NCBI GenBank assembly: GCA_036172245.1
Contig: JAYWIR010000010.1
Location: 2,666,001-2,730,000 of the forward strand
Length of the DNA stretch: 64,000 bases
Origin: Raillietiella orientalis
Taxonomy: Eukaryota
Reading direction: 5' to 3'
Shown: positions 1-23,500 of the stretch, in pieces
How the letters are laid out: every line of letters starts with the position of its first letter
How positions within the stretch are numbered: the first letter of the stretch is position 1
Notes under the pieces: model-generated
Databases searched by the model: none
Seen by the model: only the letters and a program-made list of their open reading frames with translations
Told to the model about the DNA's origin: nothing
Translations under genes and position numbers: made by a program

Positions 1-3000
1 GCATTAATAATCTGAAGATTCAGGGCATTATGTCAATCAAAACACATTCTTCAAGATCTCTCAAGATATTCTTATAATTATTATACTAAACATCAAGTAT
101 TAAACAACGTTTCATTATTTAGTAATTAATTAATAAGACACATTATATAGTATAATTTAATGACTATGTTTAATGAAATTAAGTATCAGTTTTTTCACAA
201 ATTAACATTGCAAATTGAATATAATAAAAAAAATTTGAATCTTAAATCAATAGAGTATGTGGATGGAGTTGATCTTAAGGGTGCGGAGTCTTGCTGTGGC
301 CGACAACTGGCAGGTGTCTTGGAGACAGAACTGGTGTATGAAATATGTGGTTAGCAAGAACAGATTTATTTTGCATATATTGGGGTACACACACACAAAA
401 AAAAAAAGGATCGAAAGCCGAAGTCTTCATGTCTTTCCAATCTTGTCGAGGGGACATCCCGGTTCATTCTTAAGAAGCAACGCTGTCCGATTCAAAACTG
501 CTGGAGAAGACGAGGTGCCATCTATTCCATAATCGGTTTGCACCAAGCAATTCATTGCCAAATTGCCCAAGCTCTTCCTATTGATGCTGCCGCAAGATTT
601 ACAAGCTTGATCTGCTTTTGATTTCTTATCAACTTCCCTTAATTCATTGACAAAGTTGCCAGTAATACTCCAGGGTGTGATGGATCTGATGTCCATCTAG
701 TAACTGTTTTTGTCTGCCAATGAACCCTTCATTGTGCACTTGATGTCTATCCTGAAATGGAAAGGGAGATTCAAAGTTTCGTGGAATGGCAGAATTCGAA
801 AGCTTCAAGATCAATTTCTTTTTGGTATTTCTATTTGGCAGTGGTTTATGACCACAAAACTGGTCATGTGCCTGTTATGGGGTTTATTAGTCCCATTTGC
901 TCATGGAAGGGAAACTGTAGTCTCTTCTATGCACCCTGGTTTCTCGGGAGAATGGCACACGAAAGGAGTAACATACACTTAACCCAAGGATAGACTGCGG
1001 ACTCTGGGATTTTCGAGACATCAGCAGCAGATAAAGAAAAAATTCTCATGCATGCTTTTTCGCTCGCTGTCCGCCTAAGGTCAAACAGTTGGACAGAATT
1101 ATGGGTTTCACATCAAATGGCCTACAGTGAGAGTGGGTTTAGAAAATAAGAATGCTGGCCTCCCTTTCCGTAAGGGCTTATTTCTGCAAGGCAAAGCAAG
1201 AATGCCCCTCTGTAGTACCCTAAATTCAGTTTGAGTTCGGAACCCTGATCATTCTAGATTCAGTTGATCTCCATCACTGCCGAATGGAACCGCGCAAGAT
1301 GCCCTTCGGCAAGATTCAATGGTAGCAAAAGACAGTCCTCCTACAGTGGCGAAACATGCTGGTTCCTTTTCATTGCTGGTGTGCAGTTTATTTGTCGTGT
1401 TCAGTTGAAAAGACAGGTGACTTCATTCCAAAAATTCCAGTTTTCAGAGAAATACGAATCCGGTTATGCTCATCCGGTTATATATTCAAATACGAATCCG
1501 GTCAAACATGGGCACCCTTCTGGTCAGCGTATTTTCTAGCCTAAAGTGTTTTAGGAAGCTATCAGCAAAAATGCACGTGGAAAAGCAACACTCAATATTT
1601 TCCCCATTTCCAGATTTTGGAAAGAAGACTTCAAACTTGGTGCTGTCGCGTCGTCAACACGTTATCAGCACGTAGGGATGCAATTACGCAAAACGCAAAT
1701 TCAAGGAGAACACGTGCTCACGCGAAGAGTGTCTCGTTCCTGCGAAGAAGTGCCGCTCCATGCAACGATGTGGACTACTTAGTGCCTGACCTGGGAAGAG
1801 CCATCCCGGGATTGCCTTCCGAAGGACACTCTTCCACTCTTCTCTTATATTTTAGAACCCAATGTGAAGGATTCGCTCATCACCGAGTGAGCTGTAGTGA
1901 TGGTCCGGAAACCACCAGTGAGAAATGAAATCTCTTGCCCTATTTTGAGAGTGTCAGATTGTCTTGGACCCCTTGAAACAGTGTGATACTCAACATGATT
2001 GGCATGGGTTTTTGTGGGCAGCGCACCATCAGAATGATCAGCAAGTGTTCTTCCCGCAGGTTTAGTACCAATGCAAAACGACCAAAAAAATAAAGCGGTC
2101 CCACATCAAGGTATGAAACGATGGAAACATCGCGCGTTGGCAAGAGACGAAGGTTCCTAGAGGTTAAAGAATAAGCTTCTAAGACATATCTAACATCTAA
2201 AATTTCGGGTGACAAAAGTATTCCTGATTCTAAAGTATCCTTGATAGCATATTGAATAGCGCTTCGCAGGTGGGAGAATCAGAACTCTTTGATAACAGAT
2301 GCCGTAACGATGACACTCAAAGTATTTGCAATAATGCAATCAGTAGAATGAGTGATAGAAGCAATATTATTAGTAGGTTAGAACAGAATGATGCCGATAG
2401 AATGGGTAGCGAATAAAAAGGCATCCAGAAAGGGATCGTGTTCTGCTGGAGGCCGCCCTCTCCATCCTTCCTAGGATGCTGGCAAGTTTCATCTGCACGC
2501 TCCCCAGGCGAGACCATCTGTCCGCTGTCCGCAGGAAGCGAATCACGACTTTGATGTCGCTCCTTCCGTCTCCTCTTTCGGCGTTGCCCCAGATCGTCAC
2601 AGTCCCAAAGTGAGAATAGGGAGCTTCTACTGGGAGCAGAGGAACAGAATTTGCCAGGGAGCTGAGGCGAGGCCCAACGCCGCTTAGCGGCGGAAGGGAT
2701 CGCCGCATTTCGTGGTTAAATGAAGGTCCTCATGGGGCGATGTTGAGATCAAGATGGACGACCAAGGCGCTTGATACTGCAACTGATTCGATCCCGCAGA
2801 AACAAAAGCTGCTCTCCTGAGCTTCATCTATCCCGCCAAGCTTCAGCACTGTGACTGCCTCGCAAGACGACGGGAAGGCAAGGAACGCGGACGTTAGCAA
2901 GGATGCATCAGAAACGGTGGGCATGTCAGTTGCTTCTGGATAACCTTTCTGGATAACCTCTAGACTTCATCACGGAACTGTCAGAATCGGGAGCGACCTC

Positions 3001-5886
3001 CAGCATGCACCTCAAGAAATGGACTTTGGGATGCTGATTCAGGAGGCACCAGTATGAAACACGGATTCATCTCTGGAATATTAGGAATCACAATTAAGAG
3101 GGAAGCGCATCCAGGGAAGGAAATCGAGACGAACTTGGGCTGCAGAAAATGAAGCGAAAACTGCCGGCGAGGATTTTGGCCAGGATTTTTTTTTCTCCAC
3201 TCCAGAGGGTATCCTCAGTCAGGTGTACCTGCGTGAGGGGTTATCAAATATGCAGAAGCGTTCTGTTTCATCCTGACAAGTCAAGCTTTCCATTCTCGTT
3301 AGATCCCGTTCCACTGAGGGGCAGTGGCTTCCTCTAAGAATCTTCCCTTGAGGTCTTTTGTCAAGCAGAGAATGCGTCGCTCCATCTATGGAAACCTCCA
3401 GCGAGCCGTTGTCTAGAGAGGGCGTGTCGCTTGCAGGATGACGCGCACGCATGTCCGCCGCACAGCAGACTCTCGAACGCCTTTCTGCAGCGCAGGAGAC
3501 GAGGGATCCTTCCATGGTCGTCCATCCGGCCATGAGCCACACCTCGAGATGTCCTTGTCGCCTCATGAACGACGGTGACCAGAGCTTTAGGATGTGTCTG
3601 AGATTTAAATCTGGTCCGGAATTCGGAATCTGATGCGAGTGAGCCTACAGAGAGAACGATGATTCCATTACCCTTCGAGTGCATCCTCAGAGATCGGGTC
3701 GCTCCCAAGTCTCTGTTTCTGTGGAATCGATCCTGGAAGCATGCCGTGGATTGCATTTTGAATCTCCGCGCGATTTCCCCTTTATTTCACCCGGTCACGC
3801 TGGGACGTTTATTGTAAAAAAGAATATTTACAAAAAAAACAGTCATCGAAAATATAAAAAATGTCTTCCTTCGTAGTGGCTTCACTTCACCACTGCGAAC
3901 GAAAATGCTGTATCGGGGCGCTGCTTTTCGTGAGCAGCTCCCCCGATGAGGTCCGCAAAGGAGGAGCGGGGGAAGGAGTAGACAAAAACAAAAACACACA
4001 CACACAAGAGTTTCGTTTAAAAAATGTTGCGGGGGAAGGGAAGTGATCACAGATTTTTTCCTGGCGTCCTCAGCATCCTCTGAGGGATGTTGGCAACTTT
4101 CTTCTCCTTTTGTTGGCAGCGATGTGGCCATCTTGTCGTCTTCCTCATAAAGGAGCAGACAATTACGATGATCTCATCATTCGACTGGCCTCTGTCGTCG
4201 CGGCTTCTCGCCTCCACGATCTCACGAAGGTAGCTAGGGAAACTGCAGGCGACATCGAGTCGCGCGTGAAGAGGCACAGCAAAACCTCTCTGTCGTTGCC
4301 CATCGGGAGTGGGAGGACCGTAGAGAAGCGTTCTCTGACACTCAGGAAGGCAACAAAATCCAATACAGGGGGACTGGAAGGTTCCCCGTTCCCCGAACCT
4401 GGCACAGTCTGGGGTTACACTCTCCCTTGACCAGTGGTGGACTCGTGCGTTGCATGAGATCGCCCAGTGCAACAACTGCGATGCCGAGTCCTGCCACTTC
4501 AGAGGAAGAATGGAGCTGTCCACAAGTACTGGGGGTATCTCTGCCTCTTCAGGCTGGATGTACAGGAGTTTCACCCAGAGACCAATTTTGGTGGGGATGG
4601 TGGCATGGGTAAATGCAACAGCCAGTTGACGCGCCGTCCAGCATCCCAGCTGCTTCTTTTTTCCCGCCATCTCGCAGGATACTTCCAATCTTGCAAGAGC
4701 ATCACTGTTTTCACTTTGTGGCATGGTGCCCAGCGTGGCCGCAAGTGGGGTGATCGCTCCCAGGTGGTCTTCTGTGGGCAGTCCGTGATTTCCTGCAACG
4801 AGCAGCGAGCGCAGTTTGAGAATCTCAGGCATCGTGATGGCTCCGGGTTCGTGCCGTTTCTTTTCGCCCAAGTCTGAACTGCTTCCTGTTTCCAGACACC
4901 ACAATTGCCGAGGCCACAGGAAATCCACCTGTTTTCCTGGACCAAGGCGATCATTTGCCGAAGTTGGTACCCGCACCGGAGCAGCTCTATCGGTGGCCAT
5001 GCACGAGGAACGTACCGAGTCCCTCGGCGCCGGCTGCACGTTTGGCCAGGAGTCTGACTAGGACTCACCAATGGATGGTCTAGAACTTCGCCGCTATGGT
5101 TAATCTTCTACACTGGAGCTCACGCTCCAAACTCTCCAGAGGCAGGACCCCGAGTCCGGAGTCCTTTAGGGCGCGCTTCTTCGATCGGTGGTGGAGCTGC
5201 CAGAGATCCCAATTCGGAGTCTCGGAGAGGGGAATCTCTGAAATTTGTTGTTGCAGTCCGTTTACGTCTCATGAACACAGCCTTGCTCCCCTAACTTCGA
5301 TCATGGGCTCCAGTAATGACCGAACGATCCCTGATACTATGACTTGCTGTCTCTTCCTGTTGGATGATTTGTTCGACCTGAAGCTTTGGGAAAGGCCGTG
5401 GCCGACACTGCAAAAGGATAGGATTGGTTTTGCCGTCCACATGGGTGCTGCTTTTCCGGCTGCTCCTCCATTGTAACTCGTCATGGCCAAGTTGGCGGAA
5501 ATGGAAAAGAAACGGAAACCTGGAGAGCGAACGAGACGTCTACGCCCTGTTTGACCATCTCTCTCTTGAAGGACAACGGAAAGCTGATACTTAATTGCCG
5601 GAAAAGCAGTTTGTTCTTAGTCACGCCACATTACTAATGTGATGCATTTACATTCCTAGCTACATTTTCAAATCCTATACACAGAGAAATTTGACGTTCA
5701 CTGTCAGCTGACGCGCCCGTCATGTGACCCCACGCTTCAGTACAGAGCCTCCTTGCACAGTGTGAAAGGTGAATTAAAGCAAGGAGTCTAGAAGATTCAC
5801 GAGTTCCTAAAATGACTTCTTTGAGTAGATGTTGAATGGCCTCTTTTCATTCTGGCGGCATCGCAGCTTCCGGTGAAATCTAGTTG

Positions 5887-6578
5887 TTTCTACAAGGAGA
5901 ACTTCATGGCAGAAGTTCTTGAAGCTCTTCCATGGAATCCAGTACTACTGGTTCTGCAGTCCCATGCATCGTCGGAATACCAAGTTTTGCTTGTCATCAT
6001 CAAGACGACCTCACTTCGCCTCCATCCTATCGGATGCAAGGGAGCCTGAGAGCTGCAAAAAAAGAATATCTTTCGAGGATCTCAGCCGACCATTTCCGTG
6101 CTGTGGAAGAAGGAAATCCGTTCCCCAACCAAAATGTTCCTTTCGTTGCGAGCTGAGGATTGACATCCAAACACCGAAATGTTTCATCTCCCATGAAAAT
6201 GCCTCCTCCCCCAAGGTATCTCTTCAACGTGTCGCTGGACCGTGGAAGCTCGACCGATCCCTTTCTCAGCTCGTCAAGCTGCCGAACGCTTTTTGTTCTG
6301 CGGTGATGACGAAGGCCACTTCTCGTGTTATTTTGGGATCCGCTAAGCGCAGGAAGAGGGGCAAAAAACAAAAAAGAAACGAATGCGTAGAACAACTGGA
6401 TTTCCGTATCAGCCAAGATCTTTAAATGGTTGCGTAGGTAGCACAACTGATTCTGGGAATTGCAGCTGTGCACGTATGACCGCGACATCTTGAACTTCTT
6501 AGTCGTTCTAGTTTCTCCAAGGAGAGCTTCATGGCAGAAGTTCTCGAAGCTCTTCCATGGAATCCAATGCTGCTAGTT
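5887..6578 (+). repeat. ~65 bp dispersed direct repeat pair (about 5887-5953 and 6512-6578)
   Basis: TTTCT(A/C)CAAGGAGA(A/G)CTTCATGGCAGAAGTTCT(T/C)GAAGCTCTTCCATGGAATCCA occurs twice about 625 bp apart, with about 7 mismatches over the aligned length. Confidence 0.85.
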
Positions 6579-7717
6579 TCGTTCTAGTTTTATTGAGGGA
6601 AAATAGGGAGAGTCTGAGGGGTTTCCGAGTGCCCATTGTGCGTAGAAAATCAGAGACTCCTACAAGCAGTCATTTTTTTCCCTCGCCCAATAATCCGAGG
6701 GAAGCTGCATCGATACCTCAGGTTGAAATGGCTTGCCCAAAGATTTTTTCATTCTTTTCAAAGAAGAAGGAGTTTTCCTTGATTTTGGTGAACACAAGCT
6801 GCTGATCTGCTAGCAAGGAGATGATATGCCTCATGAACTTACAGTAATGCAATTTCCGAATCTTCCGACAGGGAACTGCTTTCTTTTGCAGCGGAGACTC
6901 TCCATCGGCTATTCTGTGATCTCAGTGGGGCTTTTCCCTAAAACTCTGGACATCCCTCCTCATCTTTTATGGAAATATTAGAGAGTGAGGAGTTCCGTGT
7001 AACACTTTCATATAGTACTGGTTAACTATTCAGAATAAATAAGCTATATTGGCCAAATGTCAAAACGTATGAAAAGTATCTTCAAAAAGAGAAGTAAACA
7101 AACGCGCCACAAACATGTCACAGTTCCATAGAACACAGTTGAGTATCGGAACGCTGGAAATACTTGCATTGGATTAAATTGCTTTATTACTTGAGTATAA
7201 CTGTTTGATATTGGGCACATCACCACTAATTACATTCATACTCACATCGACGTCAGCATATCAGGAGACTCATTTAACGACTCGAAGAAAGAAAAGTTTA
7301 AAGTACCGGGCTGAATATCAAAGGGAAACATAGTTTATAATTTCAACGAAAAAGACGGAAGCCCTGAGTTTGGGAAAATAATGCATATTAATAACCAGGC
7401 ATTTAGCGGAAAGCATCACAAAGCATTGAAGAGTGAAAGCAGATACTCCAGTAAAATTGATTTGAAATCGCTGTTCTTATAGAAATCAGTTTTGAAACAA
7501 TAGTTATTTTTTAGCTTCAAATTAAAGACATTTGCACGCTGGTTACAAACTCAGAAGCTAGAGGGTGATTGCCAAGAGATGTGCTAAAGATTGCGAACTT
7601 GCTATCAAGAAGATGCTTCAACAGGTGCAAGCTTGTGAAGGTTCGAGAAACTTGCTTTCCCTGAAGGCTTATAATCATTGAATTTTGTCTGTCACTGAAA
7701 ACCAATGCCGCCCCAGC

Positions 7718-7798
7718 TCAGGTTTCAGCGTCACACTCACAACTGTGTGAATGTTGTGATATAAGAGTAACTTTCACCAAAAAGGGTGTCATCCCAGT
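7718..7798. repeat. Fragment resembling a Wolbachia intergenic palindromic repeat
   Basis: Contains CAGCGTCAC...ACAACTGT...GGGTGTCATCCCAGT. GTGTCATCCCAGT matches my recollection of the start of the common Wolbachia repeat (TGTCATCCCAGTG...CACTGGGATCC). It is truncated where the IS630 fragment begins. Confidence 0.6.
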
Positions 7799-7954
7799 CT
7801 CAAAAAAGTAAACTATACACAAAAAAAATTTTTTCTCTACCAGGAAAGGGATGAAGAAAAACGCAAGGAATTTATAAAAAAAAGTAGCGAAAATAAAAGA
7901 AGATTTAGTATTTATAGACGAATCAGGCATAGAAGACAATGAATTTTATGCAGG
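7796..7954 (+). mobile_element. Bacterial IS630-family transposase fragment (frameshifted, truncated at both ends)
   Basis: Translates as SLKKVNYTQKKFFLYQERDEEKRKEFIKK, then after one extra A in the A-run at ~7876-7883 as VAKIKEDLVFIDESGIEDNEFYAG. This is the typical IS630 linker (Y-x-ERDEEKR) plus the first catalytic Asp motif (F/Y)IDESG. No inverted repeats are visible. Confidence 0.85.
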
Positions 7955-7961
7955 TCTGTAG

Positions 7962-8020
7962 TTTACATTAAAATTTTATTTTATATTATTGTAAGTATTA
8001 CGCAACTTTAGAGGACGATT
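7962..8020 (+). promoter_or_regulatory. Bacterial-type sigma70 promoter-like and Shine-Dalgarno-like sequence upstream of the dcd fragment
   Basis: TTTACA (7962-7967), a 16 nt spacer, TATTAT (7984-7989), then GAGG at 8011-8014 six nt before the ATG at 8021. The DNA is AT-rich, so the promoter match could be chance. Confidence 0.4.
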
Positions 8021-8110
8021 ATGGCGGTTATGCCGGATAAATGGAGAAAAGAAAAGGCTGAAAACTTTGGAATGATAGAGCCTTTTGTGGATCACAAAGA
8101 TTGTTTTTGA
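8021..8110 (+). pseudogene. dcd: 5' fragment of a Rickettsiales/Wolbachia-type dCTP deaminase
   Basis: [26 protein letters not shown] (8021-8098), then DCF and a stop. It matches the Dcd N-terminal pattern M-x-x-M-(S/P)-D-K-W-I...MIEPF as I recall it for Wolbachia. The conserved SYGYD motif that should follow is absent. Confidence 0.75.
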
Positions 8111-9381
8111 AGATTGTTGATTATACTTTCCTTATATTCATTACATAATTTTACAAGTCATTGAACTCTGTCTGTTACTGAAAACTACCGCAAACACGCT
8201 CTTTATCAACATCAAAGGCATTATTCTGTCGAGACATGGAGTTTGCAAGTTCAAGATTCCTTGTACCATTTGTAGCACTCTGATTCAAGGAAAAGCTTGT
8301 GTTACCGTAGGCGAAGTATTTTCATTTTTTAAAATCAATTGAGAATCACAATTCAGTCATGGAAACATAGCAAATAGACTGTTTGCGTGATTATAAACAC
8401 TTGTGAATTGAATTGTGAACAAAGGTAGTACTACTTGTGGAACCAGAAACAGTTTTCTTAGACTTCCCAATACTCCAACGTTCACTTGGTAGATGGGAAT
8501 AGTATCATTTGCTACAAACATCCGAAATTCGCGGGAGAGAATTCATATTAAAAACAGTAATAGTTTACATTTTGACTAATATAACGGGTAAACTGATAAT
8601 TCTGATCACTGTGAGACTGGATGCTCAATCACAATCAAACGACAATTTTCAATAGTCTCTCAAGTGAAAATATGTACCTTGGCTATCGAAGATATATCTC
8701 CACTATTCATGCAAAATTTTGCAGCATCTGGAATCCACACTTCCAAATGTATCTTTAAGGCTTTTTAAATTTGATTGTAATATCATCAGCCAAATCGCCA
8801 CTTGAAAGCCGGTCTTGTTTTTAGAATAACTTGATTCCTTTGTGCTATTCCTTTGTGTAATAGCTGGAACCCAGAGCCACTGACTAATTGGCAACAAGAA
8901 ATCCTAAAAGCAATCATTTACTCTATTAGATTGATCAGGATGAATCATTGAAAAGCCTCTTTCCAGAAAAAAGGGGGTTCAATGAAGTTTTGAAAGGCTC
9001 ATGATATCAATTTTCCGAGGCTGAATCTCGTATCTAATAGAAAGCTTGATTTCTTTGTGTAATGTCAAATCCATTTTATGTTATTCTCGCTACTACTTTA
9101 GGCATATAGGATCTGTTGTTTTCCTTTCATGCTCATCGTTCAGGCAAGTGCATTTTCCTGATAGATGTTGCGTGAGTGGAACTGAGTACCCCTGAGTTCC
9201 GTGCAGGAAGCGACCATATCGTAAATCTTACAGTCTTCTGAGTGCACTTGTGAACATGCGGTGGTGGTAATTAAGAAAGTTTTTTGGAATAAGCTCCGTA
9301 TCTAAATGGTAATCTCAGCGTTGGTTGTCATAACTTTTATGATCTTGGAACTTATGTATATGTAAAGTTTGACCTAGCACA

Positions 9382-9453
9382 ATGAAACTAGATGTGTTAT
9401 GGAAATATCCCTATCTAGCAGAAGATCAACTACATGGATTTGATAATTACACA
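9382..9453 (+). CDS. EPT1: EPT1 coding exon 1
   Basis: [24 protein letters not shown] followed by a GTAAGT donor at 9454. Confidence 0.9.
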
Positions 9454-12400
9454 GTAAGTTTTTTGTTTGGACAGTTTTGAAGTTAAACAGCGCGCGATGA
9501 AAGAAAGCGACTGTTTTTTAAAACAATGCATGCTCATTAAGCAAAATTATCCTTGTTATTTGTCGTTTGTTTAAACAGTTTTTTAAGATCAAAAACAACA
9601 CTGGGCGTAAGCATTCGTAATTCGCGATTTGTTATTTTATTTAAGATGCCATGATTTCTTGCGTTGTTTCATTTACTCATTGGATTACCTCTTTTAGTAC
9701 AATTGCCGAGACACAAATCCATTAGGTAAATATATATGCCATCCATATTGGAATTTTGTTGTGAAAGTAAGTAATAAGTTCTTTTACTTAATTGTTCTAA
9801 AGCTTTCAAACTCTTAATGTTCGAAACTGTTTTTGAAAAGCTGAAGCAAATATAGCTCTTTTTTTCTCCGTGTGAGTGTCATTTTATTAGTTTTCATACA
9901 ATAATTTGATGTAAATAAATTTTCAATAAAATGAAATGTGAAACGTTTATGCGTATGATCTCATAAGTATTATTTCTGTTTTTAGATTTATTCTATTCTT
10001 GCACTTAGATTTATTCTTGAAATGGGCAATTACAAATACAGTATTAATACTGTATTTGTAATTCTCATATAATGATACAAACAGACAAGTCCTCTGTGTA
10101 TACTTTGCATTAACTTTATGCACTTATTCCAAAAGTATAACCTTTTATCAAGTGATTAGGTACTTGTGTGGAATCAGCATGATGAAATGGTAGTCAGTAA
10201 TGTCTTGAACTTTTTTTGCATAGAGAGTAAGGTAACAGTTTTTGTAGCATTTTTGTTTTGGCAGTAGTATCATGACCCAGTATTGGGAAAGTCCTTTTTC
10301 TGTCTTTCTTTATAGACAACATGACATTCAGAATCATTTATTTATACTTCAGAAACTAATGTATAGTGCAATGTGTCTCTCAATCCCAACTTATGTGGTT
10401 TCTTGTTTGAAACTTTTGTTACTGTAGCTTTGGTTTCTTGTAAGCTTGTCATAGAATCTTCTAAAATATTGAATCTTTGTATAAGATGCGTTCAGCTTAA
10501 TAAATAAATAACCCATTTGTAGTGCTTTTAAGACATACAGTGGATAGGACAACCAGTGTATGTCATTTTTGTGGCTCATCAACTTGTGACTACTTTGGAA
10601 CTACCTTGATCAGTTCCAAGGTAGAGTAATTATTTGGTCTTTTCCCATTTTAGATTTAGTGCAGTAAATTTATTGTGTATCTTCCAAAGATCCAAACACT
10701 GTGATGTTTCTTAGGTAGATAGCTAGGTATAATTCTTTTTATGTGAGTCAGATTTCTTATATGGATGACTACATTTCTGACTGGTTTTATCCAATACAAG
10801 AGGTCAAATCAAAATGTATTTTATTACTATATGCCTCCACATTCACTTTGTCATATAACTAACAAATTGTCTATTTCTCGCAAGTCTGGCACTTACATGA
10901 AGCACATTAGTGCTTAGTTTGCTCACCTGTTGCATAAATTTGTACACTAATCAGTTTGTTGTTGACTTCATAGTAAACAATGTTAAAGCACATTTTAAGA
11001 TACTGAAGTACTTTTCATCTTCAGTTTATTTTACATTTTCACTGAAGATATTTTTTCAGTTTTCTTTTGGTTTTAGCAACCTGTTGCCCCAAATGTATGG
11101 TACATAAGTATTTCATAATGAAAAGGTTCTTCAAGTGAGTTGCTAGTGCTGACATGTTTCTAAATTTATGTTGCCTTTGCAGTGGCTGTGTTCTTGGGTA
11201 ACTTTCCTGGGTCCATACATAAAAATTGTGTTTCCAAGCTCCAAAAATTTTCTTTTCTCTGTTAAGTTGATGAACATATTAGTACCAGGTTATACTTTTG
11301 TATGGTAATATTTTTATACATTTGTTTGTTATTTGTCATCCCACTTTCAGGTATGCTTGGCTAGCATTTCCTGTTTACGTAATCATCTTCACTAACAATT
11401 TTACTTACATCATTACATAATCACTTCATTTGAAAAAAAAAGTGATTATATGTATCCTTTTGCTGCACAGTTAGCTTAACTTTATGAAGTGCCCCCTGCT
11501 ACATAAGACAGCTTTCTGTGGGCTCTTTTTCTGGTTGTTCTGACAACAACACAGTTAGAATTAAGTTTGAAGGTGCATGCACTTAATGAGTTAAATGATT
11601 TTGGTTTTTATCATTTTTTGTCATCATTAGGTCCATTTCCTTATTACCAAATGTATTTGTTTTGAACACAAAAGCCCATAGTCCATTAGTTTGTTGTGAT
11701 AAAATAAAATTTGGAATCCCAATCTCCATTTTATTGCCATTTGTGGTTTTCCCTTAAAATGAACTCGATGTTATACGTTTTAATGAAAACAGTGTTTGCA
11801 ATTATAGAAAACCTTTTTATATCTGCATATCTTGCATCTAGTTGACTGATGTTCTGTTGACCTGTAAGAGAGCAAATTACTTTTATGGTTGTTTTTTGAT
11901 TCTCAGATAGCATAATGCTGCAGGCATGGTACAATAAATAAATAAATATGGACTTTAAATGTGACAGTACTAATTTTTTGTTTTTACCATTACAGAATAC
12001 ATTATTTACATGTTACATTTTTGTATTAATCACATATTTGCAGTATATGTGGGTTCCTTTTTCTGAGCTTTAATTTACAAGCCAAACTGATGTCTATCTC
12101 AAATTATGGTACCTCATCCCTGTCATGATGTGGCAAATATATGTTTCTATGTTTCTCTTCCAAAAATTTTTCCTAAAGTCGTAAAGTTTTTAAGGGACAT
12201 CTAACAATAAAAAAAATTATGTAAAACACACAGGTGATTCATAGAGATGAAACAAATGAAAAATAAAAAAGAGAACTAATTTAAAAGTGGTAATGCACAC
12301 ACATGGAGTTTTGATAAATGATACAGTGTGAGTGACTGACTTGATTATGATTTTCATATATAGGATATATTACTTAATTTGGTTTAATATATTTGATTCA

Positions 12401-14961
12401 CAATATGACTAATTAAAGATGCTTGTGCAACATAATATAATATGGATAATGTGGATGTGCTTGTTGGTGTAGTTATTTGCAAAGTTTTTTAAGAAGGATA
12501 TATAAAAGATTTTCTAAATGATTTTCATTTTTTAAATATTTAAGAATTTGCACATGTGTTTATGAATTAGTAATACCCAAAAAATAAAGCAAGTGTTGCA
12601 TATTGAATTTTTTCATTATAATAGAAGCTTACTTCATATGTAATTTAAGGTACTTATTAAGAAATAACTTCTCCCAATACGTGTTCCATTTGTAGTATGC
12701 ATCAGAGATGTAAAAATTGCAACCCTCTGTACTTTACTCTTTATAAGATCATGTTTGTGAGTATGGTTACATATAAAGTTATGAGTTATCTTTGAATAGT
12801 GAGAGTAATATTTGCAATTATTATTTTCGTAGTTATTTGTTGGGTTAGAAGTAGAGCATTTGGTCATTCTTGTTTAAATTGTGTATAGATAGTGAGAATT
12901 CGGCACCCCCTTAAATGAGAATAAACAAAAGTAGAACTGTTTACAGGATTCGCATGAAAATTTTCGTTTCTGTTTGTTTGTTTTGGGAGTATGTTTTTTT
13001 CCCTCGTATATGTCATTTTGGTTGAAAAGCGCAATGAATTGAATGAGTACAATATTCCAGTATTTTTAAAACCAAGTACACTATTAATAAGTGAAGTAAT
13101 ATGTATTCGTTTATTTTTGAAGTATTTAATAAAGAGCAAAACCATTTCTTCATTTTTAGTTTTGTAAATGAACACTTTGGCTGCAAGTTGCCAGCAATTA
13201 ATTTAGATTGTTCCTTTTTTGTTTTTGTTTTTTGTAGATTTTCATATTTAAAGTGTTGCACATGCATCTTGAATTTGCCTCTTCTGATCACTGAATTCTA
13301 GCTTCTTCAAATTTATTTATTGCAGATTTGAAAAGATTTTTCTGATGATAAGTTAATCAGAAGTAATGAAGATACTTTTACATATCACATCATTGTTATT
13401 AAGTAAATGGAAATATATTCCATGCTTTTCAAAGCAAGAGTTGTATTGATAATATTGTGTTTCAGAAGTTATAATGCCTTCTTTTTTATCAATATAAATG
13501 TGTACACTGTTTAGGCAACAATACTGTAATTTTGTTAAATTCTCATGATCCTTTCATATCACGAAATTTTTGAACTTTTTTATTTCAGTTGTGTCCAATG
13601 TGGATAGCACCAAATGTGTTGACTTTTATAGGATTTCTTTGTACAGTTGTTTGTTTTTTGGTGTTTACTTATTATGATTATTATTTTTGTGGTTGTGCAG
13701 TGGAATTTACTGACTGTGCATCTATTCCACGCTGGGTTTGGATGTTCACTCCTCTAATGTTACTTGCATATTATACTCTAGGTTTGTGGATTTTTGATTT
13801 GCCTATTGAAATTTACTTTTTTTCTTTTTTTTTTCATGATCAGATGGCATAGATGGAAAGCAAGCAAGGAGAACTGAATCTAGTAGTCCATTGGGAGAAT
13901 TGTTTGACCATGGCTTGGATTCATGGTCTGCTGTTTTTGTTCCTGTATGTTTTTATAGCGTATTTGGGAAAGGATACTACAGCATTCCACCAGAGCGTTT
14001 CTTTTTTGCTTTATGGGGTGTATTTTTATGTTTTTATATGACGCATTGGGAAAAATACATCACTGGCATATTGTTTTTGCCATGGGGCTATGATCTTTCA
14101 ACAATGGTAAGGCATATTATTACAGAAATTTAATCCAGTTTTTGAAAGATAACCATCGTAATTTATTTCATGACATACTTCTTTGGTTGCCATTTTTGGA
14201 ATTTTAGCATCATATTTTCGTTGGGATTATATCCAAGTCATGTGTTTGAAGCAACTCTGTGGATTGGGTTCCTATTCCTATGTATGCCTATGACTGCATA
14301 TAACATCTACCAGTAAGAGTGATGCAACCATCACATATAATTTGCTTTGCTAATTCTAGGCATTACACAACTCATGTTGGAAAGCTTCTTACTATTAAGG
14401 AATCTCTAAGACCTCTTAGTGCAGTTTTGCTGTTTATGATAATTAGTATTTGCTGGGTGTTTCTTTCTCCTTCAGACATATTGCGTTACGATCCCAGAAT
14501 GTATTATTATTTAACAGGAACTGTGTTCTCAAATATCTGTGTGAGTAATTTGATATCTTAAAATTATTAAGCGCAAGCAACTTCAGTTTAGAGCCATTTG
14601 ATAATTAGTCAGATGAGTGGAACTCGATGTGAGCTAGTCAATGTTCTCATGTATCCTTATACTGCAGCTGTTCTGCTTAGTGTGAGCATAGGCAGCTGTG
14701 CAGAAATCATTATATTTTATGTACTTGCGATACTGATGACAGTGTTGCATATTCACTATGGAGTTTGTGTGGTAAGTTAATGTGCTGTTGATGTGCTTTC
14801 ATACTCTGTCTGTTTCTTTAATTGCTTGGTTACTCTTTCCTACTTCTTTTCAGGTTAAACAGATGTGTACTCATTTTCAAATCAAATGTTTTCATCTAGG
14901 AACGAAATACCATGTTAATCAGGACGTTCTTCCTTTACTTCCAGGTGAACAGGATCAGTGA
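9382..14961 (+). CDS. EPT1: Ethanolaminephosphotransferase 1 (SELENOI/EPT1-like CDP-alcohol phosphatidyltransferase), 8 coding exons, 409 aa
   Basis: join(9382-9453, 9698-9766, 13589-13781, 13844-14106, 14149-14312, 14360-14540, 14592-14771, 14854-14961) = 1230 nt. All introns are GT-AG and the frame is continuous. It has the CDP-alcohol phosphotransferase motif [26 protein letters not shown] and EPT1-like segments ([52 protein letters not shown]). Confidence 0.95.
9698..9766 (+). CDS. EPT1: EPT1 coding exon 2
   Basis: CTTTTAG acceptor, [29 protein letters not shown] donor at 9767. Confidence 0.93.
13589..13781 (+). CDS. EPT1: EPT1 coding exon 3
   Basis: TATTTCAG acceptor, [16 protein letters not shown]...LAYYTL, phase-1 GT donor at 13782. 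Confidence 0.93.
13844..14106 (+). CDS. EPT1: EPT1 coding exon 4 (catalytic motif)
   Basis: [11 protein letters not shown]...GELFDHGLD...[14 protein letters not shown] donor at 14107. Confidence 0.95.
14149..14312 (+). CDS. EPT1: EPT1 coding exon 5
   Basis: [19 protein letters not shown]...[10 protein letters not shown] after a 42 nt intron, GTAAGA donor at 14313. Confidence 0.85.
14360..14540 (+). CDS. EPT1: EPT1 coding exon 6
   Basis: HYTTHVGK...[31 protein letters not shown] donor at 14541. Confidence 0.92.
14592..14771 (+). CDS. EPT1: EPT1 coding exon 7
   Basis: [17 protein letters not shown]...[15 protein letters not shown] donor at 14772. Confidence 0.92.
14854..14961 (+). CDS. EPT1: EPT1 terminal coding exon 8
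   Basis: CTTCTTTTCAG acceptor, [38 protein letters not shown] stop. Confidence 0.92.
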   Translation, partial: VKQMCTHFQIKCFHLGTKYHVNQDVLPLLPGEQDQ

Positions 14962-17900
14962 ACATTTGAAAGTGCAGTGTTTCTTCCTATGCCCTCAATT
15001 CAAGTGCATCTGAATTGTTCTTCGGTTTTTCCTGTCATCTTGTGCTTTTCATTACCTTTCATTAATCATGATAACTTTTTTGTTGCAAGGATTTTTACTT
15101 CCTAGTCACTTTGTTATCTGTCAAATATATGTATCTCGTCACACTCAGACAGAGCAAACCTTAACATATTTTCTTCATTTCTTTGCATTTTGATATTCTC
15201 TTTTCTCTTTATACTAAAATAATATATTCCATACTATCAGCTATTGCATACATTCATTTATGGTGTAATAACGAACTGATTCATTTCGTATTGATAACTA
15301 TATGTGATATGACATATTTGTATGCGTTAAAAATTCAGTGTTTCTTATTAGCCGCTCATAATTGGACTTCATTATTACTGTTAAAAAGGATTGTTCGCAT
15401 GTTAACATCCTGAATGAAATTGTAAGCCAGTACTGAGTGCCCATATTTCCGCAAATATATGTCTGATTTTTATTGGATTGCATTTTGATTCACTGTCTCA
15501 TTTGTGTAATCGCATACTTGCCCTTTTAAGTCGTATTATGGAGTAGGATGTGTTATCCCATTTTATCCAATATTTTCCTGCGAGTCGGTGCATATAAAAT
15601 TTTGTAGCACTTTTTTCTTGTATTGCACGTCAGGAAGTACCAAACGGTATCATGAACTTTTAAACTGTGAATGCAGCTCTCTGTTCCAATCATATATTAC
15701 TTATATGAAAATGGCGTTTTTGGTGAACCTCAATGGCCATACCTGGAAATACATGAGGAATTCACAGAAATTTTGAAGGAGTATCTCTGAATCACAAATC
15801 TCTGTTTTAAAACGAACCGGCACCTAGAAGTTCGGAATTTTAAAGTCAGTAAGTAGTAAGATGTGAAGTAATTCATTTGGGACATGAGCGCGCGTTCGTG
15901 ATGCTCATTGGGATGCACAGGAAAGGAAAATCGTGTTGTGACTTTAAAATTTTATAGTTCGTTCCTTCCAAATGTAGAATTTGGAGAGCCAAAACTAGTG
16001 CGATGAATATTTGAATTTTACCATCTTGAGTGGTATACTTCTTGTGAATGTTATTTGATGGCCTTTTTCGCCCCGGGGTTGCGGAGTGGCGAGGAGACGG
16101 TGAAACAAAAACTCTTGCTGACGAATTCTGAGAAATTCGTAGTGCTTTGAATGCCGTTTCACAGTCAGGTGCAAAAGAACCGTATGAGCCTTAGAGGCAC
16201 CGCACCACAGGTGACCATGAAGCATGTTGCAGCTTCTTTAACGAATCTTGTGCAGTGCTTTCACGGCATAGATTGGGGGAACCATTCCGATGATCGTTCG
16301 AAAGTGGTGCGATTCGAAAATCACTTTGGAAGCAAATTGTGAATGCCGTGCGCGCTGATTTTCAGAGTGTCGCGAACCGAAGGATGAAAGTTGGAAGAAG
16401 CACCACACCGGGAATTGTGTAAACAAACACGGGAGGAGTTGGCTTCCCAAGTGTCAGCTTTGTGTTCCTAAGTACAGACTCCGCTTTCCGAGTTCAGCTC
16501 TTTGACCCTTTGAATGAGTGATGATTAACGGGTCCAGTGTTCAAGCAAAATGAGCTAATGAGCCACGCGATCTCGAAGTGAGCCTCTCTGGTTTCAAAGT
16601 GCAAGTTGTGAACGAAGTCGGAGTAGGCTTGAGGAAGCCGCTGGGGTCCGAGTAGGTTGTTTGCTCGCCGGTGTTTGGTCTCTGCCTCTTTCTTTGGAGG
16701 GATGTCGCCGGAGCACGCAAGAGTCGGCGGCGGCTTCGACGGACTTTCCTTGGAGTAGGCTTCTCGAATCACCAGTTTCTCTCCAGGTGAATGAGCCGAA
16801 TGGCGGATTTCAGGCGCTGTTTCGAGTGTCTGCCAGCGAATTGCAATTTCAGTCCTTGTTTTACAGTTCGGCCTTTCTGCGTTCGTGATTTCGTTTTTTT
16901 TTGCCACATTTTCGGTTTGCCGTGTTCCCTATACTTTTGTATCCGGGGGAAGGGGATTTTCCGCCCGTTTTAAAGCTATTGAATGGGTGCGGTTGTTATG
17001 CTTTATCGTTTACTTTTGAGTGTTTCGGTCTTTTTACGAAATTAGTTGGTACGAAGTGCACTTCATGCATATCGGTTCTTCCAGGAGTGTGGAGCACTTT
17101 GGTAAACACGGATTCCAAAGAGCGTCGTTTTTCTATCTTGCAGGCCATATCGAGATAAAGTTTCAATCTTCCCGCCACTTGGACCCCGTTTATTTCGTTG
17201 AAGGCTTGTGCGTTCCAACACTCTGAGAATTGCGTCTCCTTTCCCCTGAAAACAGTAGTCTTGACATTCCTTCCGAGAATCCTTAGAAGTTTTATCAGCC
17301 ATGTGGGTTTCCCAGTGTGTAGTTTCTTGTCATTCTTGTTTTGCATCCAGATACGGGAAACCACTGCTCGTTCCTGTTTCGTTTTCCTCTGAAACCTTGC
17401 CATGTTTTCAAATCTTGTATAACTCTGCTCGAGTGGCTGAAGAACGGGGTGGTGCTGACGTCTGTTTTGATGAGCTGATTTTACTTCAAGCCTCACCAAA
17501 GGTGTAAGGTCACGTTCGATTCCTGGTTCGGTCTGAACGTTTTCCGTTGGAGAGTTTTCCACCTTCCGTGAGCAAGGGCACATGTGCCTCCTTGTGTCCA
17601 GGTGGCGATTGCGGTGGCTTGGTTTTCATGTACGTGGATGGGTACATATGTGTGTGTCCCATGAAGTAAGCTGTAGGGAACTTGATCCTGTGCTGGTAGC
17701 GTCCCTGCGTTAAAGGAGGCTGGAACGGCTTGCGTGAGGCTGCAGAAAATTTCGCAGTCATGCTTTAAGGAAGATTCGTGAGGTAGAGAGCTCTGGTCAC
17801 ATAAACGTATCAAGTTTTTTTTTTTCTTTGTGTTAGAAATCTGAGATTTCTTAAGTGGTTTCTCCTTGCAGCTAACTGAAAAAGGGTATATGTTTATAAA

Positions 17901-20228
17901 AGTATTTGTTTAGGTGAAAAGTGTATTTGGGCTTATAACGTCTAACCAGAGAAAAACGACGCAGCTGATTGATCACAAGTCGCAAAGTGAGATAACGGTT
18001 CTACAGTAGAGTAGCAGTTCCAATAGATGTAGGCGAACGTGACGTACCGTAAATAGGTCGTGAGGATCGTTCGAACAAAACGTTTGTATTGGTAAAAAGT
18101 CAGAAGTGGCAGTTGTGACAGAAAATGACAGTTGTAATATACTCACGGAGCAAGCTTTCTGCCGAATCCATCAAACTCCCATTGAAGGGAAGCCATTGAA
18201 GAATCCGCTCATTGTGAATGTGCGTTCGTTTCTTCATAAGCTAAACATCCCGGAGATTCGACTAATGTTTGATTTGCATGAATGGACTTTATTACTGCTT
18301 GCAAAACCATCCTAACACTCGAGTTTTTTTTTTTTGCAACCATTTCAAGCACGGTGCCCCATGGAAAAGTAGTTGGTCCCTGCGGCTACGGAAAGTCAGT
18401 TCTCTGGAGTAATGTTGCATTTGGTTATCAATTTTTGTTTTGTTTTGTTTTGTTTTACTCACCACGCACATTGCTTGGTTTCACACACGAAGTACGGAAA
18501 CGATTTGTATCCTTTGGTTGCTTGTTTTAAAGCCTTCCTCCTTCCAAAAGCACACTGTCCGTTTTGCATGCCCCGAACGGCGAAGTCACTTAACCAACAG
18601 TCCGTTGAGTGACGCAGAGGACAGTGCTTCATCTTGCTGGAGCAGAAAGAAAATAAAGACACCGTATCGCCAGATGAAAAGAACAAAAAACTAGCCACAC
18701 GTGTTTGTATCAATAACCTTTAGGATTGATCCATGATCCAACGTGTTTTTGTTTACACTTACACTGTGCCAATATTTTACGTGCTGCTTTAAATTGGTTT
18801 GAGAGGAAAAAAAAGTCATGTATATGAGGTCACCTGCAGGTTTATGTACATCTGGCGTGCTTGCAATGTATTAAGTGGCAAACTTTTCACCACTGTCACT
18901 AACCAGTGCCCCAACTACGTTCTACAACTACGTGTAATATGTGTAATAATAGTTAACCCAGATAGATCCTGTCATGCGAAGTGCTCTTGCAAATGTAGTT
19001 GCCCAGTATTGTGTTGTGTTGACGTGTCCATATTTAGGAAAATACGGAAACATCGTAATGCGAGTCATTAAATCAAACGTAAAGTCAGTGGATTGAGGAA
19101 GGTTATTGATTGGTTTTTACAGAAAGGTATGCAAGTCCTTACTCTGTCTTTGGCCTGCTCTGTGTCAAAGGTTAGAGAGAGAAGAGCAGCTGCGCTTGAA
19201 TGAAAGTCGCAGAAGAGTGTCGACGAAAACGAGGATCCTCCGATTTCATTCCTGGCGGCAATTAGGTGTGATCCGTTGATATCCGCTGATGACGGCAAAT
19301 CCCAATTCACGTCCGTACATTGCGGTCACGTTAGGTTTTGTTGTGAAGCTGGCAACACTGCTTCCGAGGTTGCTGTCTGCCCGGGCGATTTTAACGTGGA
19401 CGGAACACGAGGTTTCAAAGCAGAACACGAGGTTGGAAGGCGCCCTTAGCTGACCGAAGCCAAAGCATCGGTGTTGAAATGAAGATTTTCTGGCGTTTGA
19501 ATCTTCCGCGTACTAACCGTACTTGGAAAGAGGTTTCCCCCTGGAGAAATGTTCATGAGAAGAATCGGAAAACAAGCACGAAAGCTTGAAACGCGTTGCT
19601 TCAAATTGCGTTTGACCAAATGTGTTTGCCCACGACAGAAGCGCGATTTTGAGGGATAAGGAAAGAAGGGAAAAAAATAGCCGAAGATGTTGAGCCATGA
19701 ACACGACAGCTGAGCTGTGTATGGAGAAACGTTGGAGTGGTATTCCTTATCTTTTCTCAGAAAGTACTCCACGCGAAATAAAATAGAAAAGGAATGCCCA
19801 TGCGAAGTAACTTCAGAATTTGCGCTAACCCCCCCCCCCCAAAAAAAAAAGTCGAGCATCGCCTCAATCGGCAGGGCAGGAAGTATATAAAGGCATCCCA
19901 CTGGATTAGGCAGTCTGGAAAACTTTTGCCAGCATGAGCGACAAAAGTGGAACTGCTGTTCGAACACGAGGCATTGCAGTCGTTGTTTGATATAGTAAAT
20001 AAGTTATCTGAGAAGGCACTTTCTCATCCACAGGTATCGTAGGGAGAAGTCCTGAGATGATTGCTTAGTTTTTATTCATTTTATTTGTGCTTTCACGTGC
20101 ACCGGGGAAGATGACTTCGATTGTAAACATATTTTCTCTTTAGTCATCGAATTGTATATCTTGCGGGGTTGTACTGGAAAAAAAACGCCAGAAGGCTGGC
20201 TATGTAAGTATATTTTGAAAAGAGGGGA

Positions 20229-20557
20229 TGATTCATTCGGGAGCAATGCAGTTTCTTCTGTCATCCGCGGGGCGATTCAGCACTTTCGGATTGTGTTATC
20301 TGTCTAGCATTGCAAGTCCCATTAAGGACCTCAAACTCGGAGCAGTGTGTCGTACCAAGGACTGAACTCCTGAAGATGCTCCTGCGGATGCTGATTCATT
20401 CGGGAGCAATGCAGTTTCTTCTGTCATCCGCGGGGCGATTCAGCACTTTCGGATTGTGTTATCTGTCTAGCATTGCAAGTCCCATTAAGGACCTCAAACT
20501 CGGAGCAGTGTGTCGTACCAAGGACTGAACTCCTGAAGATGCTCCTGCGGATGCTGA
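20229..20557. repeat. Perfect tandem duplication, 2 x 163 bp
   Basis: The unit GATTCATTCGGGAGCAATGC...CCTGCGGATGCT starts at 20230 and 20393, with no mismatches seen. Confidence 0.97.
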
Positions 20558-20581
20558 AGAGGGCCTCTTCAGCATCCGCAG
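20545..20581. repeat. Perfect 18 bp inverted repeat with a 1 nt spacer
   Basis: CTGCGGATGCTGAAGAGG-G-CCTCTTCAGCATCCGCAG. Confidence 0.95.
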
Positions 20582-23500
20582 AAAACCCGCGGAACACCTG
20601 CTGGTGCGGTTCCGTAAAATCCGTTCTCGTTCCCCGGCACACGGGGTGTGTGCGGGGGGTAGGTAGCTTGGTCGGTGTTCCTCTTGTGCGCTGAGCTCCC
20701 GATCTCTCTGAAAGCAGCGCCGCACAGAAACTCGCTAAAGCCCGTTTGAAGGTTTCTTTAAATGAAGGCTCCAGCCCGAGGAAAGAGAGGGCAAGCAACC
20801 GTCTAGGCAGGGGAACGCGTAAATTGGCAGATCGTTTCAGATCCTCCCTGGAGAGAGCGGCGCGGTTTGGTGCTTGGACCAACACAGTGTCTTCGTAGCA
20901 CAGCACCAAGGTCCGAGCACAGTGTCTTCATTCCTTTCAGACATGGATACGTTGGAATTCGGTGATGCTAAGCTCCTCGGTGACTCCAATCATCCCAGAA
21001 TCTCTTCGCCTTGCTAGGAGGCTCAGTCGTGGATGCAAGTGCAACAGAGAACGGTTCTCTCGGGTCATTCACGATGTCGGTCGCAAGTCGAGTGGGCAGC
21101 TGCGTGTACGCCGCGGAACAGCTTGCGCGCATCTGCAGTACCATATGTCCGAATCAGACGTGCCAATCTTATACTACGTGGACGCCCTCAAATCATATAC
21201 GTGTTAGTGCCTGCATTTGTGGGTTTGCCTCCGCGTGTGCAGGCCATCCACCAATACTTGCATCTTGCTCGTACACTCAGTCGCGCGTGCAAGTAACGTG
21301 CATTCCTGCATTCGTTCGTTCACGCTTGTGCATTGTACATGTGTGTACGACATCATGTGTTTATTCCTACGGAACGAACGAAAAACCTCTGGGTGGATGA
21401 TTGGATGTCCACTTCTTCGAGTCGATGTTCATCTTCGAGCGAAGCGGGCGGGAGAGCCAGCGCTCGGAGCGTTTCAACCACTGGCCAAGTGGTTGCAGGT
21501 GGCTGCAGCGCCAGGTCAGCCGCGACAGTCCACTGCTGGCTGGCGCTGCAGTCGAGTCTGGTTGGTTCTGCCATGGAGCTCTCTGCGACCAACGGAGAAC
21601 CTTGGGGCGGTCGGTGAGCCCGGATGTGCTTCCCGTCAGGGTCCGAACGCCGGCTCGCTTCACTCGTGTTTTCCTGGGTCAGGAAAGGGTTCAAGAGGGA
21701 GGGAGGAGAAAAAGGAAATAGGGACGAGGTTGCACGAACGTTTCTCTATCTGTCTTGCCCTCCTCCCAGGTGTGAGTGGACGACTCCTTCAGGTCTCGAA
21801 TTTTCCTTTGCAGAGTTCCTCCGAAACGCCCTTCCTCTTCTGCCTGTCCTGCTCCTCCTTTCGCGCAGCCCCAGCTAATGAGGGTCGTTTCGACGACACT
21901 TCCCGCGGAGATCTGGAGGAGGCAGTCCCGGTCTTTGCATCCACCCCCGGGACGCCGTGACGATGGGCTGCGTCTTCACTGCAAAGAGGGCTCGGACTTG
22001 GACCCCGGGTGGTGAAGACTCCGCCGACGCTCTGCTCCCGCGGGGCGATTTTCTCCCCTTCTCGGCAGCTTCCAGCTTTCCCTTGGAGGCTTTTCTCACG
22101 CCGCGAGCTCGATCGGGGACTCCTTGGATGCTTCCTTCGGGGTCGGAGGAGCACTGTCCCCTTTTCGCCTCTTCCCCCTTCCCCGGCGCGACCTGCCTCT
22201 GTGCCCTCAAGGAAAGTCTTCGAGGCACGTGCCGGGGTACACGCAACGATACGGGAATCTCTCCTCTTTCTCTCCCCCCCTTTTTTCCACCACTTCCCCT
22301 GGAGTGGTTCGATTGTTGAGGTGCGATCAGGACCCTCCTTTCACCGCGTTCCCGCAGAGCACATGGGGCACACGCTGCGCGGGAGTTCCTTGCAGCTGTC
22401 GAAGCCCCATGGCGACCCTACTCAGCGGCCGGATGCAGGGAGTGCTCCGGGCACCACGAGTGTATCCCTCCAGACCCTCGGCGGGAGGAGCCTGAGGGCA
22501 CGGAGGGAGGGAGGGGCACTCGGGTTCGAGCGCCTCCCTCCAGCGCTGAGGACCGGAAGGAACGTCCGTCCACTTTCCCCCCCGTTCCCCGAGGGCGGAT
22601 GCCCGACGGAAGGAGGATCCTGTCTCCTGGAGCGACGTTCCCCGCCGGATGATCCCGCGTCGTTCCTGCGGAGGAGACCCCGGATTTCCTTTCGTCAACG
22701 CTACCGGAGTCTTCCTGTCTCTCCTCCATGGACTCTCTCAAACCTGCCGGGAAAAATCCCAGCGGGCCACCGAGCATCACCTGACATCGGCAGTCCTCAT
22801 CTTTCTTCCCGGGTCCACGGGTAGGGGCGGGGCTCCCAATCTTCGTCTTCCGGTCGCGCCTACCCTCACCCCGCTCGTCGACTCCCCGCTTCCTGCGGAC
22901 TCCTTCCGTCTCTAGCCAGGATCTCTCGGAGGGCCCCTCCCGGGCGGGGAGTGGCCGTCGTTGGGTCCCGTCCGGAGAAGGGGTCCCTGGACGAGTGGAA
23001 CCAAGTCCCCTCTCGACGCCCGTCCGGGAGCGCTGTCCCCGCAGTCGGGAGCCTCGAAGTGGACGTCCCCGGGGAAAGAGGGGCGCTGAGGCGGCGGTCC
23101 TAAAGAGAGAGAGCGCCCCGGTCTCGGTCCGGGCACCACCGCGCCTCCCTCGAGTCCGGCGGCGGCCTCCGGAAGTACGCAGGCGCGCGCGCGCAGGCGA
23201 GCACAAAGGCGGCGGCGGCGCGCGGCTCCGCTCCGCAGGAACTCGCGCGTCTGGTCGTCGCGTGTATCTCCCAACAGACGGGACCGACGTCCCTTCCCCA
23301 CAGGGAGCGACACCTGCCGCACCCCCTCTTTCTCCCCCCCCCTGCCCCCTCACCTGTCCCTGTCGAGCGCATGAGCCGAGCGCGACGCAGCCCCCGGAGC
23401 GAGCCCGCCCGCGGGAGCAGCTGCTGGTTTTTCCCCCCGGGCGCTCTCGGTGGGGAGAAGGAGAAAGGGGAAGGAGGTCGCACGAGCAGAGGGCCGCTCC

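Follow-up and report, generated by a model that had tools for sequence, protein, structure and literature searches.

The window, that is, the whole 64,000-nucleotide stretch of DNA analysed here, is interrupted at 7704-8156 by a 453-bp insert made of four abutting pieces of Wolbachia DNA (A to D, with lengths of 95, 153, 147 and 58 bp, respectively), and the rest of it is eukaryotic, with an intron-split phosphotransferase gene and a Snail-type zinc-finger gene. A 28-nt direct repeat brackets the insert within one base on each side, and in the assembled window the insert is continuous with host DNA on both sides, as read at the level of the assembly. The features of the locus are as follows:

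7675-7702, no strand: left copy of the direct repeat, TCATTGAATTTTGTCTGTCACTGAAAAC, host sequence of 28 nt, presumed target-site duplication
7704-7798, plus strand: piece A, internal fragment of a Wolbachia gene (glutamate-synthase-beta/2-polyprenylphenol-hydroxylase) running into the start of a palindromic element, 96% identity
7799-7951, plus strand: piece B, IS630-family transposase fragment from the gene interior, covering the region of the first D in the DDE motif, 84% identity
7952-8098, plus strand: piece C, 69 nt upstream of dcd and dcd codons 1-26, 97% identity
8099-8156, minus strand: piece D, internal fragment of a Wolbachia ORF following ankyrin repeats, antisense relative to A-C, 93% identity
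8158-8185, no strand: right copy of the direct repeat, host sequence of 28 nt, beginning one base past the end of piece D
9382-14133, plus strand: intron-split choline/ethanolamine phosphotransferase gene, with conserved exons at 13574-14133

The preliminary description of this locus had named three bacterial features between 7718 and 8110. All three are present in the sequence, and their BLAST matches to Wolbachia loci are significant, so that a chance resemblance is not involved. The bounds and the count were both too small: bacterial DNA begins at 7704 and ends at 8156 (not at 8098 or 8110), and a fourth Wolbachia piece at 8099-8156 had been missed.

The exons of the neighbouring phosphotransferase gene match PF01066 (CDP-OH_P_transf; 26.9 bits against a cutoff of 22) and the solved chains of CHPT1 and CEPT1 (E = 2.4e-17). 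Its putative first coding exon, at 9382, lies 1226 bp downstream of the insert; this exon gave no match, and its start codon is putative. The gene, named EPT1 in the preliminary description, can be placed on these matches as an intron-split choline/ethanolamine phosphotransferase, but no more narrowly. G+C content is about 30-35% in the stretch at 7-16 kb that holds the insert and the phosphotransferase gene, and about 65% from 21 kb to the end, with the shift at about 16000-22000. A perfect tandem duplication at 20229-20557 (period of 163 nt, 2.0 copies, 100% identical) could be a very recent duplication or an assembly stutter. Within the GC-rich 43 kb, Pfam matches were found only for the zinc-finger gene (68 of the 162 stop-to-stop ORFs of at least 140 aa were searched, the sample being the longer ones from position 21208 on). 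This is a single-exon gene of the Snail/Scratch C2H2 type at 24318-25487 (plus strand) with long His and Gln runs, and the nearest Atlas clusters of its protein are mostly arthropod; for the phosphotransferase exon Chordata came up most often, and both results may be read as leads only. The GC-rich part also holds a tRNA-Lys (CTT) at 52449-52523 (minus strand), which gives weak generic matches to Wolbachia tRNAs with no sign of transfer.

Searches for the donor covered 60 species-representative genomes of the genus Wolbachia, together with BLAST against Wolbachia loci. The peptides of the window itself hit no family in NCBIfam and Pfam profile searches; they are too short for profiles, so that origin was tested at the DNA level and genes were assigned by way of their Wolbachia counterparts. 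Some part of the query is matched at E <= 1e-12 in 56 of the 60 genomes, and the four pieces have DNA identities of 84-97% to Wolbachia genomes, with E-values between 1e-19 and 1e-67. BLAST against the Wolbachia loci gave E = 1e-67 for 7952-8098, E = 5e-41 for 7799-7950 and E = 3e-31 for 7704-7791, and no match for 7650-8150 was found in the phage collection. A degenerate pattern for 10 Dcd residues, scanned against one genome each for 185,579 prokaryote species, retrieved eight stretches, seven in records titled Wolbachia and one in a Rickettsiales MAG. The suggestion that the donor was Wolbachia is borne out by these identities and by the confinement of the Dcd pattern to Wolbachia and that single MAG; all four pieces of the insert are Wolbachia-derived sequence, as a nuclear Wolbachia insert (nuwt) should be. 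None of the 60 species-representative genomes is the best match for all four pieces, and only G030 carries three of them (A at 87%, C at 93% and D at 93%), on three different contigs.

Piece A is 96% identical over 95 nt to G043 (C138:10345-10439), 92% to G003 and 87% to G030. Its left 34 nt are gene coding sequence, and its right 61 nt (7738-7798) are multi-copy in many Wolbachia genomes. The donor frame around the match in G043 (locus L039) is a 729-aa ORF that matches NF005128, a putative bifunctional glutamate synthase subunit beta/2-polyprenylphenol hydroxylase (E = 1.7e-183), and also TIGR02697 (WPE_wolbac, the Wolbachia palindromic element; 75.9 bits against a cutoff of 27.55), with the WPE domain at residues 543-578 of the gene. 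The window reads in the same frame as this ORF (QVSASHSQL.ECC.IRVTFTKKGVIPV, QVSASHSQLCECCDIRVTFTKKGVIPV) and stops about four residues into the WPE domain, in mid-hairpin, retaining only the leading part of the repeat; neither the 36-residue WPE domain nor a complete palindrome is found in the window. Since the donor sequence continues on either side, piece A is truncated at both ends. The repeat originally noticed here, the 15-mer GGGTGTCATCCCAGT at 7784-7798, was correctly recognized as a repeat; the piece itself, however, starts 80 nt to the left of it and takes in unique coding sequence. In the donor-side locus of G043 (L039, 1-2193), the glutamate-synthase-beta/polyprenylphenol-hydroxylase-like gene remains open through the in-frame insertion of the palindromic element, and this resembles the in-frame palindromic elements described in Rickettsia genes. 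The Wolbachia palindromic element has itself been described as a mobile repeat (PMC4898810).

Piece B has matches in 22 of the 60 Wolbachia genomes at E <= 0.001, the best of them at 84% identity (G060, G011). When translated, these Wolbachia copies match NF033545 (transpos_IS630) with E = 6e-6 at model positions 113-182 of 299, and they also match PF13358 (DDE_3); their 25.9 bits for NF033545 fall below the cutoff of 100, as expected for fragments. Piece B covers model positions of about 113-170 only and is without IS ends, and two A-runs in it differ in length from the Wolbachia copies. As first described, the transposase peptide is frameshifted, with YQERDEEKRKEF in one frame (7838-7873) and LVFIDESGIED in the next (7906-7938). 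Neither a profile score above the cutoff, nor a full DDE domain, nor terminal inverted repeats, as a full IS630 element would have, were found for piece B, and as far as its sequence tells it is a piece that came from an IS630-family element without being one itself. In common with Wolbachia IS630 and eukaryotic Tc1/mariner elements, it encodes the region of the first catalytic aspartate of a DDE transposase; unlike Tc1/mariner and whole IS630 elements, it holds about 50 of roughly 300 codons and has no terminal repeats, which indicates that it did not arrive by transposition. Its 84% DNA identity to Wolbachia IS630 copies marks it as bacterial and not as a host Tc1/mariner element, and since no copy is closer than that, its source IS variant lies outside the sampled genomes. 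Best hits to eukaryotic Tc1/mariner elements, with no match for dcd, had been named as the outcome that would speak against a bacterial insertion; the hits obtained, in searches of Wolbachia sequence, were those to Wolbachia IS630 copies and, at 97%, to Wolbachia dcd.

Piece C is identical to G040 at 143 of 147 positions and 96% identical to G014 and G034. It opens dcd at 8021 with a Shine-Dalgarno GAGG six bases before the ATG, and codons 1-26 run from 8021 to 8098, in agreement with the 26-residue N-terminus that had been read here after GAGG-N6-ATG. The frame opened at 8021 closes at 8110, giving a 29-codon 'dcd' ORF. G040 has the full counterpart, a dCTP deaminase gene of 185 codons (TIGR02274, 166 bits against a cutoff of 92.8), and with the profile matches of the Wolbachia counterparts both original gene assignments, IS630 transposase and dCTP deaminase, hold. 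Piece C in the window gives no profile match, and no full-length Dcd fold above the cutoff is found there; on its DNA alignment it is a 5' fragment of dcd. The upstream-plus-5' segment that it matches occurs in most of the 60 genomes. Three substitutions in piece C, at 7970, 8017 and 8046, are private to the window and fall in columns that are invariant in 16 Wolbachia/Rickettsiales loci; the one at 8046 changes Ile9, invariant in these loci, to Arg.

The left end of piece C has a peculiarity of its own. The B/C joint (7951/7952) coincides with a CTAG upstream of dcd, and it is between 7952 and 7960 that the 16 Wolbachia/Rickettsiales loci compared part ways, continuing into several unlike upstream sequences. 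G040, which matches piece C best, has an IS5-family element lying exactly against this CTAG. In the set of 16 loci, the CTAG, some 70 nt ahead of dcd in Wolbachia, has the look of a hotspot (see L027 of G040, 1667-2341), beyond which palindromic repeat ends follow in L004, L007 and L035 and unrelated sequence in the others, besides the IS5 element of G040. A random break would rarely be expected at such a site, which hints that the B/C joint, or this DNA end alone, was shaped in the donor; the end at 7952 may already have arisen in the bacterium, where cutting at the terminus of an IS, for example, could produce it.

Piece D matches G030 (C55:2075-2132, minus strand) at 54 of 58 positions, with E = 3.8e-19 in the search of the 60 genomes, and weaker partial matches (82%) occur in G041, G060 and G034. 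Its homology breaks on both sides. On the minus strand it reads 18 residues corresponding to VKLCNEYKKSIMNNPQKQ in an ORF of G030, and the ORF neighbouring this match has ankyrin repeats. An interpretation of the 59 nt after the dcd fragment as filler was rejected on the match of 8099-8156 to G030.

The two copies of the flanking 28-nt host repeat are identical at 25 of 28 positions; no such match arose in 100 shuffles, and the local alignment score of 43 compares with a mean of 15.5 and a maximum of 25 in 500 shuffles. A longer flanking repeat of 34-35 nt was considered and rejected, the right-hand 'TTACAA' belonging to piece D. Apart from these bases, 8099-8157 does not resemble the left flank significantly: scores as high came up in 121 of 500 shuffles. 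The left repeat and flank (7560-7710) gave no meaningful Wolbachia match: 11 of the 60 genomes returned AT-rich words of 19-26 nt, with E = 0.004 as the best value per genome, and these were treated as chance.

The contiguity of the pieces in Wolbachia, which the preliminary description had wanted compared, was examined in the 60 species genomes: pieces A-D are not contiguous in any of them, and the idea of a mosaic, put forward at the outset, fits this result. Every Wolbachia match covers one piece only, and none spans two. Where the genome is complete, distances of 30 kb or more separate the pieces: G060, for example, has dcd (piece C) at 760 kb, a D-like match at 791 kb and copies of piece B at 248 and 262 kb. 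Since A, B and D come from within genes and C breaks off at codon 26, the donor sequence runs on past every joint. According to the donor alignments, neighbouring pieces have 0-2 nt in common at each joint.

The mosaic, whole or in part, could have pre-existed in a junk region upstream of a broken dcd in the donor Wolbachia, a region that would be made of IS remnants, repeats and pseudogene scraps, and could have entered the host as one 453-bp fragment. We consider such an origin unlikely, and it is the CTAG coincidence at the B/C joint that keeps it alive at this low probability: the region just upstream of dcd varies between strains, the B/C joint falls exactly at the variable boundary, the IS5 element of G040 abuts the same point, and truncated IS630 remnants adjoin other elements in Wolbachia (L019, L021, L023). 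Against this, no two pieces are adjacent in any of the 60 genomes, piece A derives from the interior of a gene with a long open frame and piece D is an antisense internal fragment, dcd is cut at codon 26 although the matched segment is present in most of the genomes, and the donor would have had to undergo several deletions to bring four such truncations together in 453 bp. Metagenome scans for the B/C and C/D joints also gave no matches; both were limited to exact matches, and the evidence from them is weak. With 60 species-representative genomes as the basis of the comparison, some strain beyond this sample could hold part of the mosaic.

Arthropod sequencing data often contain Wolbachia reads (PMC9894559), and reads of a live Wolbachia could in principle have been built into a host contig. 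An assembly chimera or contamination of this kind is highly improbable here. An assembler error would join long stretches colinear with a bacterial genome, whereas the insert consists of four fragments of 58-153 bp from unlinked loci, including an inverted one, lies well inside 64 kb of contig and has a duplicated host 28-mer on its two sides; in addition, the private substitutions at Wolbachia-invariant positions fit a decaying copy and not a live gene.

Taken as a whole, the locus probably represents a dead nuclear Wolbachia insert, in which four unlinked fragments would have been end-joined into a staggered break of an animal chromosome, probably that of an arthropod, and have since been decaying. 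The host repeat lying within one base of the insert on each side, the eukaryotic surroundings and the lack of further Wolbachia DNA in the searched parts of the window speak for integration. Wolbachia DNA would have been broken into fragments of 95, 153, 147 and 58 bp from four unlinked places of the genome, and these would have been ligated to one another and into the staggered chromosomal break by non-homologous end joining. Fill-in of the stagger would have produced the 28-nt host duplication on either side of the insert, which would then have drifted neutrally. The 28-nt duplication and the joint overlaps of 0-2 nt fit joining at a repaired break, and we infer that the joining of the pieces happened in the host, together with the insertion itself. 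The private substitutions in piece C and the repeat copies differing at three of 28 positions suggest an old, neutrally drifting insert, as far as such small numbers go, and its age may be considerable. A more specific version can be offered tentatively: Wolbachia DNA might have been shredded to sub-nucleosomal sizes (58-153 bp), perhaps on the destruction of a bacterium within a cell of the germ line, and four random scraps might have been stitched to one another and into the staggered break, with the end at 7952 possibly produced in the bacterium by cleavage at the end of an IS. Judged from the sequence, nothing in the insert is able to function: all the gene pieces are incomplete, one of them runs antisense, and the IS fragment is without ends or a full DDE domain.

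The 28-nt duplication would also fit the capture of filler DNA at a break from any source, and Wolbachia inserts can be large and extensively duplicated, as reported in the available text of PMC4299567 and PMC3849323. The mosaic could then have arisen at another place in the host genome, inside a bigger and rearranged Wolbachia insert from which a piece was later copied to this site as filler. This course of events is considerably less probable even than a mosaic formed in the donor, and the parts of the window that were searched yielded no further Wolbachia DNA: neither 1-7703 nor 8157-22000 matched any of the 60 genomes at E <= 1e-5 among the five candidates scored per genome, and 20001-60000 showed nothing beyond generic tRNA similarity to five Wolbachia genomes.

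Direct end joining of several fragments into a host break, the reading that we prefer, has known counterparts. The closest mechanistic parallel is provided by mosaic NUMT/NUPT insertions, in which organelle fragments are concatenated and captured at double-strand breaks by end joining. These share with the present insert several short non-contiguous donor fragments, little or no microhomology and a single chromosomal site; they differ in that the donor here is a bacterial endosymbiont, not an organelle. The nuwts of arthropod and nematode genomes are alike in that Wolbachia DNA is joined to host chromosomal DNA and is non-functional and decaying. The insert described here differs from them by its length of 453 bp, its patchwork of four fragments and its clean 28-nt duplication, while the available text of published accounts stresses large or duplicated nuwts. 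Wolbachia 'genomic fossils' have been described (PMC4046930), and the available text of PMC3849323 and of bioRxiv 10.1101/2025.03.17.643741 contains nothing on mosaics or joint structure; a literature search on Wolbachia lateral transfer together with non-homologous end joining returned general papers only.

Transfer of Wolbachia DNA from endosymbiont to host is well documented, and this insert is a further example of it. Since both junctions and the three internal joints are readable at base level, the locus provides a compact example of the repair process that would import endosymbiont DNA into a chromosome. Those who annotate genomes or screen them for contamination may also take a warning from it, as ORFs of bacterial appearance, like the 29-codon 'dcd', are not genes. 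Across related host species, the insert could serve as a presence/absence marker for dating the transfer. Beyond that, it records contact, past or present, of the host lineage with a Wolbachia strain, and if the host species is without Wolbachia today, it would record an infection that has been lost.
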